Source: Planctomycetota bacterium (lineage in GTDB: Bacteria > Planctomycetota > UBA1135 > GCA-002686595). From it: a DNA stretch of 64,000 nucleotides. Made by a program: the position numbers and the translations under genes. The notes below the pieces were generated by a model, which had not been told where the DNA came from, made no database searches, and saw only the letters and a list, made by a program, of their open reading frames with translations. The stretch spans positions 17,093 to 81,092 of the forward strand of contig JACKHV010000009.1 in assembly GCA_020638835.1 (NCBI GenBank), written 5' to 3'. This document shows, one piece after another, positions 4,280-50,294 of this stretch. Numbering within the stretch: position 1 is the first letter of the stretch; each line of letters opens with the position of its first letter.

Positions 4280-4999
4280 CTACAGCGCCGGCACTTCGCC
4301 CAAACCGATCGCCGGGTAGTACTGCTTCCAGCCCGACCGGATCTTCCAACCCGCCTCGGCCACGATCGCTCCCTCCGCACCCGCATCCAGGTCCGCCCCA
4401 CGCCCCACCCAGCCGTCGAAGTAGCGCCCCGACGAGAACCAGTCGGGGTCTAACGAAGCGCCGCCCGGCGACGCGAGTTCCATGTGCTTCAAGTGATTGT
4501 TCAGCACGTAGCGCAGCACGTTGCGCACCTGACGCAGCGAACGCAATGCGCGGTCGTGGAAGCGCTCTACGAACACGCGCCCGCGTCGACGCCACAGCTT
4601 GTTCAAGGTGCGAGCGATGCGACACGTGAGTCCCTTCATGCCGCCCGCCAACGCCGCGCGGTCGTCAGCTTCGACGATCAGGTGCATGTGATTCGACTGG
4701 ATCGAGTAGTGGACGATCCGAAAGCTCCGGCGTTGCGCTGCACCGATGCAGTCCGTGACCGCGTTCCCGAACCGCTTCGTGCGCAGCCGCGGCAAGCCTC
4801 GCGCGAGCTTCAGCGTCACGAGTCTCGGGTCGTGCTTCGACACCGGCTCGCGCGGTGCATGCGCAACTCCGTCCCGGCGCTTGCGTCGCCCCGCGTTCTT
4901 GCGTCGCCCCGCGTTCTTGCGTCGCCCCGCGTTCTTGCGACGTCCACCCCACCGCGGTTGCTCGGAAAACTCCAGCTCGTTCTGCGTCGCTCGGTGCAC
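4280..4999 (-). CDS. Y1/HUH tyrosine transposase-like protein (IS200/Transposase_17 fold, REP-associated RAYT type), copy 1
   Basis: HUH motif HYSIQSNHMHLIVEA, catalytic-Tyr helix VRNVLRYVLNNHLKH, basic N-terminus WGGRRKNAGRRK. Start placed at GTG 4997-4999 (VHRATQNELEF...) because the paralog at 46097-46834 has a GTG at the same aligned position. The open frame continues to ATG 5227, so the start is uncertain. Confidence 0.8.
   Translation of the reverse strand: MHRATQNELEFSEQPRWGGRRKNAGRRKNAGRRKNAGRRKRRDGVAHAPREPVSKHDPRLVTLKLARGLPRLRTKRFGNAVTDCIGAAQRRSFRIVHYSIQSNHMHLIVEADDRAALAGGMKGLTCRIARTLNKLWRRRGRVFVERFHDRALRSLRQVRNVLRYVLNNHLKHMELASPGGASLDPDWFSSGRYFDGWVGRGADLDAGAEGAIVAEAGWKIRSGWKQYYPAIGLGEVPAL
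4881..4934. repeat. Perfect 18-bp x3 tandem repeat (TTGCGTCGCCCCGCGTTC) inside the RAYT-like gene
   Basis: Read directly at 4881-4898, 4899-4916 and 4917-4934, followed by a partial fourth unit. In frame, encoding GRRKNA x3. The paralog at 46097 lacks the repetition. Confidence 0.95.
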
Positions 5000-44781: not shown

Positions 44782-45960
44782 CTACTCGACGCGCAGGAAC
44801 GCGCACTTCAGGTAGTTCGTCTCGGGCAGGGCCAAGAGGTACGGATGGTCGGGAGACGCGCCGCGCAGTTCGTGCAGGTAGACCTCGCGCCCGGCGGCGC
44901 GCGCCGCCTTCGAGAGGAACTGCAGGAAGAGCTCCGGGCGCACGTTGTAGCTGCACGACGCGCTGACGAGCATCCCGCCGGGTTCGACGAGGTCCATCGC
45001 GCGACGGTTCAGTTCGACGTACCCGCGCTCCGAGCCGGCGAGCTCGCGCTTGTTGCGCGCGAAGGCCGGCGGGTCGACGATCACGACACCGTACGACTCG
45101 CCCTTCTCGGCGCGGTCGCGCAGGTCCTGCATGCAGTTGCCCTTCTCGAAGCGCACGCGGTCGGCGACGCCGTTGCGCTCGGCGTTGCGCAGCACGCGTT
45201 CGCCGGCGGGCGCGGACTGGTCCACGCAGACGACCTCGGAAGCGCCGGCGAGCGCCGCGCGGATGCCGAACAAGCCGTCGTAGCAGAAGGCGTCGAGCAC
45301 CTTCTTGTCCTTCGCGAAGTCCGCCGCGCGTCGGCGGTTGACGCGCTGGTCGAGGTAGTGCCCGGTCTTGTGGCCCTCGAAGACGTCGACCTCGTACTTC
45401 AGCCCGTCCTCGTCGACGATCAGCGGCGACTCGAACTCGCCCTGCAGCAGCTCGACGCGCGTGTCGAGTTCTTCCAGGCGCCGGATCGAAGCGTCGGAGC
45501 GCTCGACGATCGCGTCGAGCTCGAAGGGCAGCTCTTCGACGAGCAGCTCGAGCAGGAAGTCGCGCATACGGTCCGACGCCTGCGCCGAGCTCGCCGCGAC
45601 CGCGACGCGCCCATACAGGTCGACGATCCAGCCGGGCAGGCCGTCGGCGTCGCCGGAGATCAACCGACAGGCGCCGTTCGGGTCCAGCAGCCCCATGCGC
45701 CCGCGCGCCGCGATCGCGCGCCGCACGCGCTCCGCCCAGAAGTCGCGCTTCGGCTGTTCCGTCTCGCTGCTGATCATCCGCACGGCGATCTTCGAGGCGG
45801 AGCTGTAGAGCCCCCACCCCAGCGGATTCCCGTTCGGGTCCTGCACGGGCAGCAGCTCGCCGGGCGCACCCTCGCCCCCCGCGATGTCGTCGCGGTAGAC
45901 CCAGCGGTGTCCCTTGAGGAGCCAGCGGCGCCCCTTCCCAGTCAGTTGCACACTTCCCAT
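44782..45960 (-). CDS. rlmI: PUA-domain class I SAM-dependent rRNA (cytosine-C5) methyltransferase, RlmI-like
   Basis: 392 aa. N-terminal [19 protein letters not shown] (PUA-like), [22 protein letters not shown] and [12 protein letters not shown]. Confidence 0.8.
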
Positions 45961-46096
45961 ATGTCTTGCCTCGCGCGTCCCGTCGACCGTCCGGAGCGCT
46001 TCCGGCGCGACGTTCTGAGCCGCGCATGCTACGGCTTCGAGGCCTTCCGTGGGCGCGGGAGCGCGGGAAAAGCGGGCCGTGGCGGGCTCCCGCCCC

Positions 46097-46834
46097 TCAG
46101 CAAGAGCCCGATTGCGCCCCCGAGTGCACTATGACTCGTCCCACAGCCGCCGACCGCGGCGCGGCCTCCACGGGAATGGCGCGATGGTGGCGCTTCCAAC
46201 CGTGCGAGAGCTTCCACCCGCCCCGCACCACCACCTCGCCCTCGCCGCCCGCCTCCCGCTCCGGCGGCCTCCCCGCCCAACCGTCGAAGTAGCACCCCGA
46301 CGAGTACACGTCCGGCTCGCCCACCACGCCGCACGGGTCGTGCAGCGTGCCGTGCTTCAGGTGGTTGTTCAGCACGTACACCAGCGCGTTGCGCACCTCG
46401 CGCAACGACTTCAACACCCGATCATGGAAGCGCTCGCGCAACACCCTTCCTGTGCGACGCCAGATCCCGTTCAGCGCCCGCGCGATCCGCGAGTTCAGCC
46501 CCTTCATCCCGTTCGACAGCGCCGACTTGCTGTCCGCTTCGATGATGAAGTGCACGTGATCGCGCTGGATCGAGTAGTGCACGATGCGGAAGTCCGCCCG
46601 CTGCGCGTCCCGGATGCAGCACGTCACCGCCCGCGCCTCGAGCCACTCGCGCAACCACGGCAAGCCCTGCGCCAACTTGATCGTCACGATGCGCGGGTCG
46701 TGCCGCGACACCCGCTCGCGCGCCGCGTGCGCCACACCGCTCTTGCGCTTCGGCCGCCCGGCCCCCTTGCGGCGACCTCCGTGCGTGCGCGGTTCGGGGA
46801 ACTCGAAGTCGGTCTGTTGCTGTATGCGGCGCAC
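46097..46834 (-). CDS. Y1/HUH tyrosine transposase-like protein (RAYT type), copy 2
   Basis: HYSIQRDHVHFIIEA (HUH), VRNALVYVLNNHLKH (Tyr helix), GGRRKGAGRPKRK basic N-terminus. GTG 46832-46834 (VRRIQQQTDFEF...) aligns with the copy 1 start. The open frame runs on to 47254 through the repeat, which I regard as non-coding. Roughly 55-65% aa identity to copy 1 by eye. Confidence 0.8.
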   Translation of the reverse strand: MRRIQQQTDFEFPEPRTHGGRRKGAGRPKRKSGVAHAARERVSRHDPRIVTIKLAQGLPWLREWLEARAVTCCIRDAQRADFRIVHYSIQRDHVHFIIEADSKSALSNGMKGLNSRIARALNGIWRRTGRVLRERFHDRVLKSLREVRNALVYVLNNHLKHGTLHDPCGVVGEPDVYSSGCYFDGWAGRPPEREAGGEGEVVVRGGWKLSHGWKRHHRAIPVEAAPRSAAVGRVIVHSGAQSGSC

Positions 46835-46863
46835 ACTACTTAGAACGATGCGCGCGGCGTGAA

Positions 46864-46910
46864 GTTCGCGATAAGTGCCGGATTCTTGCGCTATTCGCCG
46901 AATGGACGCA
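46864..46910 (-). repeat. Conserved 47-nt leader upstream of RAYT-like copy 2 (matches 5029-5075)
   Basis: 41/47 identical to the copy 1 leader, with the same spacing from the GTG start. Confidence 0.8.
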
Positions 46911-46993
46911 CAACCGAGAATCCGTGTCCGGGAGGTTTCGGTCGTTGGAATCGGCGTTCGTCGTTCCGCGTTGGTTCTCGGACTTTGGTCGTC

Positions 46994-47226
46994 GGTCACG
47001 GCTGACGCCGCGCTTCGCTCGAGCTCCGCCAAGGGCTCCGCTCCGCGCGGCTCGCTGGGCGCTTGGCGTGACGCGGCATCGGTCGCTTGCCGGCCGCCGA
47101 TGCCATCGCACGACAACACCGCCGTTATCAAGTTCGAGACGCGCCGCACCCGACCCCGCTGACGTGAAAGCGAGCCCCGCGAGCGGAGCCCTTGGCGGAG
47201 CTCGAGCGAGCGGGGCGGCACCGCGA
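46994..47226. repeat. 233-bp giant-hairpin element, copy A (REPIN/BIME-like or MITE-like)
   Basis: 47015-47043 (TCGCTCGAGCTCCGCCAAGGGCTCCGCTC) is the exact reverse complement of 47181-47209. Imperfect pairing extends the stem to about 45 bp. About 96% identical to copy B. Confidence 0.85.
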
Positions 47227-47505
47227 CGACCAACGACCAATGACCAATGGCCAACGACCGACCGCCGACGACTGACGATCAACGGACGACGACCAACTCC
47301 CGAGGTCGTCTGCCGGCCAGTGCGTCGACTTCAGGTTGCGGCGATCACCGGCGCTGACTTGTCGCTTTCTGACCGCGATCATCACCGCCACTGCGTGGTC
47401 GCCTTCAGCTCGCAACCCTCGCCGTCACTTAGTGCTCGTCTTCAGATCGCGGCATTCGCTGTCGCTCACTCGGCACTCGTCGTTGGCCGGTGATCGTTGA
47501 TCCTT

Positions 47506-47738
47506 GGTCACGGCTGACGCCGCGCTTCGCTCGAGCTCCGCCAAGGGCTCCGCTCCGCGCGGCTCGCTGGGCGCTGGGCGTGTCGCGGCATTCGTGGCTT
47601 GCCGGTCGCCGATGCGCTCGCACGACAACACCGCCGTTATCAAGTTCGAGACGCGCCGCACCCGACCCCGCTGACGTGAAAGCGAGCCCCGCGAGCGGAG
47701 CCCTTGGCGGAGCTCGAGCGAGCGGGGCGGCACTGCGA
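47506..47738. repeat. 233-bp giant-hairpin element, copy B
   Basis: Direct repeat of 46994-47226, 512 bp away. I count 9 mismatches, 8 of them within the central 49 nt (47576-47624). Confidence 0.85.
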
Positions 47739-47867
47739 TGACCAGCGAGCAACTACAAATCCGCAGCGACCGACTCGCAACACAACCGGAAGCGCGCAGC
47801 CGGCGCGGGGTCCGCCTCACCCCACGACATCACGCTCGTCACGGCCTGCGGATCCGTGGGTGTCGGC

Positions 47868-50294
47868 CTACCTCCGCCGCAACTCGCCCGGCTCCGCCGC
47901 GACGAGAGCCTGGAAGCGCGGGAGTTCGCGCAGGGAAGCGAGGTCGGGGTCGGAGAGGGCCCAGGCTTGTTGGCGTTCGAGGCTGCCGGGGGTCGGGTGG
48001 TTCTCGGTGAAGTCGCGTTCGAGGTAGTCGAGGGCGCGGTCGGCGTCGCCGAGGAGGGCGTGGGTGCAGGCGAGGTTGTAGTAGTTCGAGGGCGCTTCGA
48101 GGGCCTCGGCCAGGATGGCTCGGGCTTCGGCCGCTTGGCCCATGCGGGCGCGGTAGCAGGCAAGGAGGACGTCACCGGCTTCGCTGGGCGCGAGGGCGTG
48201 GGCGCGCTCGAAGTACTCGAGGGCCCGCTCTTGTTCGCCGAGCTTGACGTTCGCGTTGACGGCGAGGGAGACGAGCGCGCCGGCGCGGCGGATGCGCACG
48301 CGCTGGACGGAGGCTTCGTCGGAGCCGCGCTCGACCAGCAGGTTCTCGAGGCCCTCGAGCCGCTCGATCGCTCGCAACAGCTGTTTCTCGGCGCGCTCCC
48401 CTTCCCCCTCGTCCGTCAGGCTGCCTCCGATCACGAGCTGCGCTTCGATCGCGAGGTTCAAGCCCATGCCGGTCTTGGCGTCGAGCTCGCGCGAGACGAG
48501 CGCGTCGAGCAGCGCGGTCCCGAGCATGCGCGCGTCGGCGCTGCGCCCGTCGTCGCGCAGGTCCTCCGCGAGCCACAGCGCCATGCTGGACGGCGCGCGC
48601 AGATCCTCCATCGGCGGGTCCTTCTCGTTGCGACTCAGCTGCCAGCGCAAGATCGCGAGTTCCGTCTCTTCGTCCGGCGTCATGCGTTCGCCAGCGCGCG
48701 CGAGCTCGATCGCGCGCAGCTCGAGGCGCATCGCGCGTTCTTGCAGCAAGCGGCGGCGGCTCTCGGGGATCTCCTTCAACCAGAGCGAGCGCTGCGGATC
48801 CTGCTCGGGGTCGGCGAGCGCCGGAGCGAGGCCGTCGACCGGTTCGAATCCGGGGAACTCGAAGGAAGCCACGGAAGCGAGGCAACGCCCCAATTCCGCG
48901 CGCATCCGGAAGGACCGGTCGACGGGCCAAGCGGCGTGCGGAGGTCGCGCGAACAAGAGGCGCGTCGGCGCGGCGTCCGACGACATCAGGTCGTCGAAGC
49001 TGCCGAGTTCCGGGCTGTCGGCGGAAGTCGCGGAGACTTGTGCTTCGAGCGACAAGGAGTGCGCGCGCCGACAGAGTTCGAGCAGGCGCAGGTCGGACGC
49101 TGTGCCTCCTTCCGCCAGTGCGACGAGACAGCGCGCGAGTTCGACCGCGGCGCGGTCCATCAGGCGCGACGCGTGGCGCGCGCTGGTCCCGGGGCGCGGC
49201 AAGTCGTTCGAGTCGAGCGCGAGATCGACGCGGGACGCGAGCGCTTCGTCATGCAGCGCAGCGGCGCGATCGAGCGACTTCGTCGCGGCGCGCGCGTCAC
49301 CGGACGCCAGTTCCGCCATGCCGCGGTAGTACGCGGCGCGCGCCTTCCACTCGTCTCCGACGTCGAAGAGCGGGGACTCCGCGATGCGCTGCGCGGCGGC
49401 GATCGCCACGGCGGGGTCCATACCGCGCGTCAACGCGTGTTCCGCGCGCAGCGCTTCGAACAGGCGCGGATCGCGCTGTCCGCTCGCGAGTTCGGCGAGC
49501 AGGCGGTCGGCGCGCTCGGGCGTCTCGAGCCGGCGGCAAGCGCGCAGAAACTCATCGATGGCGACCATCGCGGCGCGGCGCACTTGCAGCGCGGGGTGGC
49601 GCAGCCCGAGCTCGATCGGCGCGCGGCGGCGCGCGAGGTCGACGCCGGAGCGGTCCTCGCCGAATCGGCGCCCGTAGGCCGCGAGCAGCGCGGCGAGCAC
49701 GTCGGTGTCGAGACGCGCCTCCGGTTCGGCCTCGAAGGCGCGCGTGAGCCGGTCTTCGATCATCGGACCTCCCGCGCGCAGTTCGCCGAGCGCCCGCGCC
49801 GCGGCCTGGCGCTCGGGCGCGGCCCAGGCGTCGATCCACTCGTCCAGCAGACCCGCGCCGAGCTCGCCGCCGAGCGCCGTCGCCGCCGCGATCAGTTCGC
49901 CTGACGGTCCGACCGCCGGTCCGCTCTCCCCTAGCGTGCGGAAGGCGTCCGCGACCTCCGCGCGCCGTTCCGGCCCCGAGGCGTGCGCGGCGAGACCGCG
50001 CAGCAAGTCGCGGCGCGTGCGGCGGTCGGACTCGCCCGCGAGCGCGGACAGCGCGCCGGGGAAAGCCGCGTCCGAGCCGTAGCGGTCGAACCAGCGCGCC
50101 CGCGCGCGGCGCACGGAGAGCGCGGCGTCCGCTTGCCCCGCGAACAGCTCCGCGCCGCGCTCAGTGGCGAACAGCTCTTCGGCGAGCGCCTCGTCGTAGC
50201 CTCCCGGACCCGACGCCAGCCGGTCGGCCACCGACACGACGGCAGCGTCCTGGGGCGCGAATAGAGAGAGGAAGAGCGCGAGGGCGAGGATCAA
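47868..50294 (-). CDS. Exported HEAT-like / TPR repeat protein (808 aa)
   Basis: Signal MILALALFLSLFAPQDA. Ala/Leu/Arg-rich helical repeats throughout. Clear TPR units near the C-terminus (YYNLACTHALLGDADRALDYLERD; AYYRGMAELASGDARAATKSLDRA). Confidence 0.65.
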   Translation of the reverse strand: MILALALFLSLFAPQDAAVVSVADRLASGPGGYDEALAEELFATERGAELFAGQADAALSVRRARARWFDRYGSDAAFPGALSALAGESDRRTRRDLLRGLAAHASGPERRAEVADAFRTLGESGPAVGPSGELIAAATALGGELGAGLLDEWIDAWAAPERQAAARALGELRAGGPMIEDRLTRAFEAEPEARLDTDVLAALLAAYGRRFGEDRSGVDLARRRAPIELGLRHPALQVRRAAMVAIDEFLRACRRLETPERADRLLAELASGQRDPRLFEALRAEHALTRGMDPAVAIAAAQRIAESPLFDVGDEWKARAAYYRGMAELASGDARAATKSLDRAAALHDEALASRVDLALDSNDLPRPGTSARHASRLMDRAAVELARCLVALAEGGTASDLRLLELCRRAHSLSLEAQVSATSADSPELGSFDDLMSSDAAPTRLLFARPPHAAWPVDRSFRMRAELGRCLASVASFEFPGFEPVDGLAPALADPEQDPQRSLWLKEIPESRRRLLQERAMRLELRAIELARAGERMTPDEETELAILRWQLSRNEKDPPMEDLRAPSSMALWLAEDLRDDGRSADARMLGTALLDALVSRELDAKTGMGLNLAIEAQLVIGGSLTDEGEGERAEKQLLRAIERLEGLENLLVERGSDEASVQRVRIRRAGALVSLAVNANVKLGEQERALEYFERAHALAPSEAGDVLLACYRARMGQAAEARAILAEALEAPSNYYNLACTHALLGDADRALDYLERDFTENHPTPGSLERQQAWALSDPDLASLRELPRFQALVAAEPGELRRR

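Follow-up and report, generated by a model that had tools for sequence, protein, structure and literature searches.

Tandem hairpin units beside a RAYT-clade gene

The stretch of DNA considered here (the window) comprises 64,000 nucleotides (nt) of a Planctomycetota bacterium (assembly GCA_020638835.1, contig JACKHV010000009.1, positions 17,093 to 81,092). Our subject is a pair of long hairpin-forming repeats within it that lie upstream of a single gene for a Y1 (HUH) transposase. The enzyme belongs to the clade of repetitive extragenic palindrome (REP)-associated tyrosine transposases (RAYTs). Features of the locus, and the corresponding structures at related loci, which are cited by locus number, are collected in Table 1.

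A preliminary description of the window had reported two direct repeats of about 233 nt with nine mismatches, eight of them central, and a giant hairpin with exact 29-bp arms in each copy; both statements hold. A repeat search of the window returns a 300-nt direct repeat (46958-47257 and 47470-47769) at a spacing of 512 with 88% identity, and in the alignment of 46994-47226 with 47506-47738 eight of the nine mismatches in 233 nt fall in a central stretch. By segment, units 1 and 2 differ at 8 of 69 positions in the variable segment and at none in the proximal arm (0/63) or the left interior (0/43). Within each copy, two 29-nt segments are exact reverse complements at 100% (47015-47043 with 47181-47209; 47527-47555 with 47693-47721), and this arm 29-mer has four occurrences in all within the window, against an expectation of 0 from 100 shuffles. 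Folding of one unit as single-stranded DNA, proposed in the same description as a check, gives -95.5 kcal/mol, well below the shuffles (-65.5 ± 3.6; z = -8.4). An invariant core, CACGACAACACCGCCGTTATCAAGTTCGAGACGCG, recurs at 47109-47143 and 47621-47655. Comparison with other copies sets the outer limits of the unit at short inverted termini, GGTCAC...GACC, giving ~238 nt per unit.

Table 1. Features of the element in the window and of related loci (window positions unless a locus is named; ^ marks a breakpoint)
Feature	Position	Strand	Description
RAYT-clade Y1 (HUH) transposase gene	46097..46834	-	GTG start; HuH motif DHVH, Tyr motif YVLNNH; final 16 codons outside the repeated unit
Conserved box CCATTCGGCGAATAGCGCAAGAATCCGGCACTTATCGCGAAC	46864..46905	-	40 nt long, 30-70 nt ahead of the GTG; kept at every locus, the L009 remnant and the L021 variant among them
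Minimal repeated unit	46147..47125	-	979 bp, 97% identity to the paralogous L026 copy; right end ...GCGCCGCGGTCGGCGG^ at 46147
Hairpin unit 1	46994..47231	.	Adjoins the gene; inverted termini, two REP-like arms, conserved core, variable segment
Proximal arm, unit 1	47004..47056	.	7-bp stem GCCGCGC/GCGCGGC, ~31-nt loop with GAGCTCCGCCAAGGGCTCCGCTC; nhmmer arm profile E = 2.8e-13
Variable segment, unit 1	47057..47125	.	Sole part differing among near-identical copies
Conserved core, unit 1	47117..47140	-	Gene strand GTCTCGAACTTGATA^ACGGCGGTG; recurrent breakpoint between 47126 and 47125
Distal arm, unit 1	47168..47221	.	Proximal-arm motif inverted; compensated stem GCCCCGC/GCGGGGC
Spacer of the 512-bp repeat	47232..47505	.	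Between units in L011 too, 88-97% identity
Hairpin unit 2, tandem copy	47506..47743	.	Arms 47516-47568 and 47680-47734
L006			Protein identity to window 65-67%; unit complete
L020			Protein identity to window 71%; unit complete
L024			Protein identity to window 69%; unit complete
L025			Protein identity to window 66%; unit complete
L028			Protein identity to window 83%; unit complete
L005			Protein identity to window 82%; contig begins within unit
L009	L009 3740-4110		Gene cut to ~25 codons; decayed remnant with core, spacer, proximal arm, and box
L021-23			Protein identity to window 58%; variant with tandem half-units

The enzyme and the box upstream of its gene

The protein matches Pfam PF01797 (Y1_Tnp, E = 1.8e-7). 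Among NCBIfam models, REP_Tyr_transpos ranks first (49.6 bits, under its cut-off of 80) and IS200 second (24.1 bits, under its cut-off of 55). An AlphaFold (AF2) model with 34 homologues as input has a mean pLDDT of 83; its top Foldseek match is 4ER8, the complex of an Escherichia coli RAYT with a REP hairpin (E = 1.1e-6, TM 0.62 on target), followed by the TnpA proteins of ISDra2 and IS608. The DHVH and YVLNNH motifs are invariant in the 34 homologues. Given the NCBIfam ranking, 4ER8 as best structural match, and the HuH and Tyr motifs, the protein is a RAYT-side member of the Y1 HUH family. Published signatures are Y---NP for class 2 and Y----Q for class 3, the class reported for Planctomycetes (PMC6006769); YVLNNH fits neither exactly. 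A phmmer search with the transposase against PDB sequences gave no matches, nor did the protein family in the viral collection.

The box between hairpin and gene is imperfectly palindromic. Direct reading of the locus sequences shows that its changes are single-sided and uncompensated, and for that reason a role as a hairpin occluding the ribosome-binding site was rejected. It is probably a promoter or an operator, that is, a candidate protein-binding site. A scan of 45900-47900 found no sigma-70-like promoters and no intrinsic terminators or T tracts.

The same structure at related loci

The preliminary description had also tied the hairpins to the RAYT-like gene, and this link extends well past the window. 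At eight more loci in Planctomycetota (L005, L006, L009, L020, L021, L024, L025, and L028), related RAYT-clade Y1 genes are preceded, at a distance of ~105-205 nt, by an arm-core-variable-arm structure. On the gene strand, its parts follow in the order distal arm, ~40 nt, core GTCTCGAACTTGATAACGGCGnTGGTG, spacer, proximal arm, ~105-205 nt with the box, and GTG; the spacer between core and proximal arm varies in sequence and in length (70-150 nt). Homologues of hairpin unit 1 stand upstream of related genes in L006, L020, L024, L025, L027, and L028, and the core is kept in L006, L009, L020, L024, L025, and L028. Neighboring genes are different at every locus: a type II secretion system protein with topoisomerase VI; YfhO with Wzy; MraZ; glutaminyl-tRNA synthetase with ClpS; TPR with PDZ proteins.

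Two of these loci depart from the common build. In the L009 remnant, the proximal arm carries 6-nt insertions on both sides of its loop and the distal arm is absent. In L021/L022 (3577-3956), a half unit made up of a single arm, an inverted core-like TTGAT, and a degenerate box copy forms a 198-nt tandem duplication upstream of the most distant related gene (58%).

A multi-copy gene with sharp boundaries

The window protein, MCB9905855.1, heads a 90% cluster of 32 sequences, with paralogues on six other contigs of the source metagenome-assembled genome (MAG) under consecutive MCB99... accessions, hence at least seven loci. Matching insertions are present in a second, sister MAG as partial genes at contig ends. 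An 82% subfamily adds three further loci in both MAGs, for a total of at least 10 loci per genome. The paralogues are alike over their first ~215 residues and diverge after ...AAPRS; their C-terminal tails differ because the sharp right boundary of the repeat (...GCGCCGCGGTCGGCGG^) falls within the 3' end of the open reading frame (ORF), 50 nt ahead of the window's stop codon. At 46097-46146 the window's ORF thus runs 16 codons past the repeated unit into flanking DNA, and the paralogues measure 229-245 amino acids.

Set against the window, the L026 copy (an ENA contig) shows no match beyond 47125-46147; the DNA flanking it is unrelated, with an IS3-like remnant upstream and a LOG-family gene downstream. 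Positions 1-667 of L026 hold two successive HTH_Tnp_1 (IS3-like orfA) frames, one of them a remnant, and resemble a nested insertion-sequence patch. Between window and L026, synonymous divergence (dS) of tnpA is 0.057 with a ratio of nonsynonymous to synonymous divergence (dN/dS) of 0.4; between L005 and L028 the values are 0.41 and 0.11. Purifying selection (dN/dS 0.11-0.4) indicates that the gene copies are kept functional. In view of the many copies and the sharp boundary, the behavior of hairpin and gene together is that of an insertion sequence (IS) and not that of a domesticated single-copy RAYT.

Three observations indicate that the hairpin is part of the mobile unit and travels with the gene. 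Full hairpins in one species adjoin three different left-hand genes, of which two, in the window (for an 808-residue protein) and in L028, are distinct TPR genes and the third, in L027, is CorA-like. These left flanks all converge on one outer terminus, GGTCRT...GCRGYG^CCGCCCCGC. Within the same genome, moreover, both arms of each hairpin carry a variant specific to the subfamily, the main type having CCAAGGG and the 82% type CAAGG.

A further landmark lies inside the unit. Homology with L026 and the L005 contig both start at ACGGCGG, right after TTGATA, so that TTGATA^ACGGCGG is a recurrent breakpoint; it could be the left cleavage site of the enzyme or the insertion point of another element. 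The TTGAT of the core is invariant in all lineages, and TTGAT(A) precedes ACGGCGG in all full units, while the L026 flank reads ...GCCCC^. For ISDra2, insertion and cleavage both take place 3' of the pentanucleotide TTGAT (PMC2806898). The ends of the units show no visible target-site duplication.

Unit number, a possible inversion, and mosaics

Copy-number variation, also anticipated in the preliminary description, is seen among strains: one unit in L027 and L028, two in the window, and at least three in L011. The L011 units follow the 512-bp period of the window, and its third unit has an arm in common with the second.

The micro-repeats (CCAAYGA) noted earlier in the spacer are real, as a degenerate 7-nt tandem repeat ACGACCA (10.3 copies, 70% matches, 47226-47297). 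The inter-unit spacer (window 47300-47470; L011 75-204) is itself built of ~37-nt sub-repeats, GTCGCCTTCA..GCG..ATCACCGGCGCTGACT, of which L011 has 3.5 copies. The cleanest tandem repeat of the window lies elsewhere, at 4880-4939 (a perfect 18-nt unit, CTTGCGTCGCCCCGCGTT, repeated 3.3 times with 100% matches). Counted at one lenient threshold, the background has ~1 array per kb, against which short tandem repeats show no demonstrable enrichment near these elements.

L029 and L028 represent one locus in two assemblies. In L029, nt 1-122 are the exact reverse complement of L028 5659-5780, after which the sequence continues into the proximal flank of the L028 locus. The interior may truly have flipped by way of the 48-bp inverted arms, or the contig may be chimeric or an assembly artifact. 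P0134 (on L027) and P0138 are proteins pieced together from other paralogues, mosaics that point to recombination between copies or to chimeric contigs.

Constraint on arms and core

Each arm is an imperfect palindrome with a 7-bp stem and a ~31-nt loop containing GAGCTCCGC(C)AAGG(G)CTCCGCTC. The comparison was made on a re-aligned set that includes indel-bearing arms. Four versions of the stem occur, all fully compensated (GCCGCGC/GCGCGGC, GCCCCGC/GCGGGGC, GCGCCGC/GCGGCGC, and GCCGCCC/GGGCGGC), the two halves lying ~31 nt apart on one arm. Indels within an arm are symmetric as well (T with C; GCC-AAG-GGC against GC-AAG-GC). Compensation inside one arm is a pattern beyond gene conversion between arms, and the folding of the single arm is therefore under selection. 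Selected folding of a single imperfect palindrome is what defines a REP. Paired changes also run through both arms across lineages, as in L024, where TTGAG has become CCCCG in both. The arms of L005 and L028 are identical at 48 of 48 positions despite the tnpA dS of 0.41.

Constraint ends at the spacer. Over all pairs of the six main-type units, the proximal arm shows 0/63 differences, the left interior with the core 0/43 (one outlier unit), and the spacer 3-11/69. Between window unit 1 and L026, the spacer differs at 4 of 69 positions (0.058), matching the tnpA dS of 0.057; by this comparison the variable center is neutral and the remainder of the unit constrained. The earlier suggestion of selection on arms and core around a variable center is thus upheld, with REP-like, constrained arms and a center that drifts at about the neutral rate. 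An 8-bp hairpin with a 14-nt loop in the variable segment, considered as an IS608-like left-end hairpin, was rejected, since it is not maintained among the six main-type units. GTAG/CGTC tags and the motif GGGGWSAS are not conserved in the arms.

Copies away from the gene

Over the ~135 kb that the window and related loci make up (window, 64 kb; L006, 19.8 kb; six further loci, ~8-9 kb each), every arm found by an nhmmer profile stands upstream of a RAYT-like gene, and there was no free hairpin or arm. As an exact probe, the window-type arm 21-mer has four single matches in 185,579 species genomes, three of them in Planctomycetota, and none in the viral collection. In the metagenome collection, an exact core 19-mer finds just two real loci, L011 and L009, and the ORF read across hairpin 2, used as a protein probe for other copies, has no match at E <= 1. 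No relevant Rfam family is matched in 45000-49000, even at E <= 10, nor does any reach the gathering score over the whole window.

Two of the three Planctomycetota matches to the 21-mer lie in a 77-nt module (L001 1790-1870 and L004 2937-3014; 86% identical) that combines a small hairpin GGGGC-TWY-GCCCC with an arm-like REP unit. It is found ~130-150 nt past the istB stop codon in two IS21-like elements from two Planctomycetota MAGs, whose IstB proteins are only 29% identical. The presence of the module in such unlike elements means that the arm motif moves, or is recruited, independently of the RAYT-like gene. Two arm-like motifs, distinguished solely by their apical loops (CCTT and CGAA), bracket four ~60-nt tandem repeats in an Isosphaeraceae MAG (L002 2190-2720), where they adjoin a tRNA-like sequence.

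A probable REP-doublet left end for an IS-like transposon

We think it reasonably probable that each 238-bp hairpin serves in cis as the REP-doublet left end for a ~1.2-kb RAYT-type, IS-like transposon, of which the adjacent RAYT-clade Y1 (HUH) transposase would be the only gene. The doublet consists of two inverted imperfect palindromes of ~50 nt, presenting one hairpin per DNA strand, with the arms enclosing a ~30-nt conserved core (GTCTCGAACTTGATA^ACGGCG) and an unconstrained spacer. By analogy to the 4ER8, IS608, and ISDra2 complexes and to the TTGAT target of ISDra2, the Y1 enzyme may bind the arm hairpins on single-stranded DNA, as do the TnpA proteins of IS608 and ISDra2 and the E. coli TnpA-REP. 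The left cut would then fall at or beside the TTGAT(A) of the core and the right cut after ...GGTCGGCGG. The second hairpin of the window is the product of a tandem duplication of a 512-bp block (hairpin plus spacer) whose number varies between strains. The element is a variant of known REP/RAYT and IS200 elements and not a new kind of system.

Several observations weigh against the left-end interpretation. The L026 copy has neither distal arm nor TTGATA flank, yet its gene is intact. The position of the left terminus is ambiguous, being either the outer edge of the distal arm (L027 against the window) or TTGATA^ACGG (L026 and L005), and since L026 adjoins IS3-like remnants, its left break may be the insertion of another element. 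The right end is coding sequence, in which the arm profile finds no arm-like motif and no convincing conserved hairpin was found; both arms stand on one side of the gene, unlike those of IS200/IS605 elements and of REPtrons. Two of the sequences, L027 with its mosaic protein and L029 with its inverted interior, are short contigs from metagenomes that may be chimeric. Gene conversion, rather than selection, could account for part of the identity between the two arms. Finally, the genome collection was probed with the window-specific exact 21-mer, the commoner CAAGG arm type standing outside the collection scans.

Alternative roles for the hairpin

Compatible with a left end, though unlikely in our judgment, is a role for the hairpin as a transcriptional insulator or regulator of the transposase gene, halting transcription that reads through from the gene upstream or lowering expression in some other way, in the manner of IS200 left-end hairpins. 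Its conservation would then reflect this role and not that of a transposase substrate. The hairpin always lies upstream of gene and box, the upstream gene is co-oriented in six of eight loci and the downstream gene convergent in eight of nine, and Di Nocera et al. (PMC3733652) suggested that the expression of RAYTs may be lowered by REP hairpins, as happens in IS200. Between 45900 and 47900, however, the scan found neither a terminator-like T tract nor a sigma-70-like promoter; a simple terminator needs neither two 50-nt REP-like arms with compensated stems nor a 30-nt unpaired core; and arm-like units occur singly in unrelated IS21-like elements. Less probable still is the proposal of the preliminary description that these are oversized REPINs (REP doublets forming hairpins), bacterial interspersed mosaic elements (BIMEs), or miniature inverted-repeat transposable elements (MITEs), non-autonomous sequences mobilized in trans by the RAYT and multiplying genome-wide. 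It would account for two inverted REP-like arms with short inverted termini, for strain differences in unit number, and for single arm-like units in three other Planctomycetota genomes. The dispersed population that it calls for did not emerge: the gene occupies at least 10 loci, and the ~135 kb searched hold no free unit or arm. Extra units are tandem, with a co-duplicated spacer, rather than dispersed insertions, and exact arm and core probes as well as the protein-space probe returned little or nothing (see “Copies away from the gene”). The gene is multi-copy, unlike REPIN-associated RAYTs (PMC5581495), and the unit ends lack a visible target-site duplication.

An invertible DNA switch, in which recombination between the inverted arms flips the interior and so alters expression or activity of the element, strikes us as very improbable. 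The inverted stretch of L029 relative to L028 and the core-like TTGAT of L021, oppositely oriented relative to its gene, would fit. Yet L029 is the one instance of a flipped interior, on a 1.2-kb low-coverage MEGAHIT contig for which a chimeric path through the 48-bp inverted repeat is possible; ten other units (window, L006, L011, L020, L024, L025, L027, and L028) share one orientation, no promoter was found in the interior, and no tyrosine or serine invertase lies nearby. Hardly credible is the reading, also raised in the preliminary description, that a duplicated structured non-coding RNA is transcribed from the hairpin, even with a very stable fold, a conserved unpaired core, and compensated stems to recommend it. 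The Rfam scan, suggested there as a check, matched no family, even at E <= 10; mismatches in the helix between arms are C-C and G-G, not G-U; the arms are equally conserved in both orientations, one locus possibly having an inverted interior; and the element is seen only beside a DNA transposase gene.

Relation to known systems

Two groups of known systems, the REPIN-RAYT systems or REPtrons (E. coli TnpA-REP with REPs and BIMEs; Pseudomonas REPINs) and the IS200/IS605 family (IS200, IS608, and ISDra2), share features with this element. With REPtrons it shares a transposase on the RAYT side (REP_Tyr_transpos, 4ER8) and an adjacent inverted doublet of REP-like imperfect palindromes forming a hairpin. 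A typical RAYT gene is present in a single copy, and a REPtron does not move as a whole (PMC5581495 and PMC6006769); here, the gene exists in multiple near-identical copies that have sharp boundaries, and the arms lie only upstream of it. Compared with REPINs, the doublet is two to three times longer, with an interior of 137-190 nt and a conserved core. It has no 5' GTAG tag, and within the sequence searched (~135 kb and the exact-probe scans) none of the tens to hundreds of dispersed extragenic copies per genome that mark a REPIN population appeared.

Like members of IS200/IS605, the element is ~1-1.2 kb long, has a single Y1 HUH gene and many near-identical copies, shows no target-site duplication, and has hairpins ahead of tnpA, at its left end; the TTGAT of its putative left junction recalls ISDra2 in particular. 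Unlike them, its protein scores 24 bits with the IS200 model against a cut-off of 55 and has a class-2-like YVLNNH in place of Y---Q. In place of a small subterminal hairpin, its left end has a 238-bp REP doublet; no hairpin was found at the right end, and one copy is without a TTGATA flank.

TIRtrons with their TIRYT transposases (Di Nocera et al. 2013; subclass 2.1 of Quentin et al. 2018) likewise combine a RAYT-like protein of ~230-240 amino acids with long inverted repeats and no canonical GTAG REPs. They have one repeat on each side of the gene, many with GGGGWSAS, whereas both repeats here are upstream and none downstream, with no conserved GGGGWSAS in the units. MITEs and palindrome-associated transposable elements (PATEs), which are non-autonomous IS derivatives, resemble the units in their shortness, inverted termini, strong hairpin potential, and variable number; the present units are not dispersed, show no target duplication, and adjoin a transposase gene, singly or as an array, in every case. 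Likeness to an inverton is limited to the one inverted instance (L029 against L028) in a short metagenome contig, other units having a single orientation.

Implications for the origin of REP doublets

RAYTs are regarded as domesticated, single-copy genes that no longer copy themselves, and the origin of their association with REP doublets is an open question. Bertels and Rainey postulated that REPINs arose from REPs flanking an IS200-like ancestor (PMC3337134), and the element described here fits that proposed step. It is conceivable, if on present evidence doubtful, that a still-transposing, multi-copy RAYT-clade element with its own REP doublet is a living intermediate between autonomous IS200-type elements and domesticated REPIN-RAYT systems. 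In such an intermediate, the doublet would already amplify locally (one, two, and at least three units), and its inversion, or its cleavage at TTGATA^ACGG, may also proceed without the gene.

A multi-copy RAYT-clade gene coupled to a REP doublet offers a natural system in which to study how enzymes of the RAYT type recognize and cut their targets. The same system bears on whether REP doublets began as the ends of autonomous elements and on how such ends start multiplying alone. For the Planctomycetota MAGs concerned, the element explains contig breaks and mosaic contigs in their assemblies.

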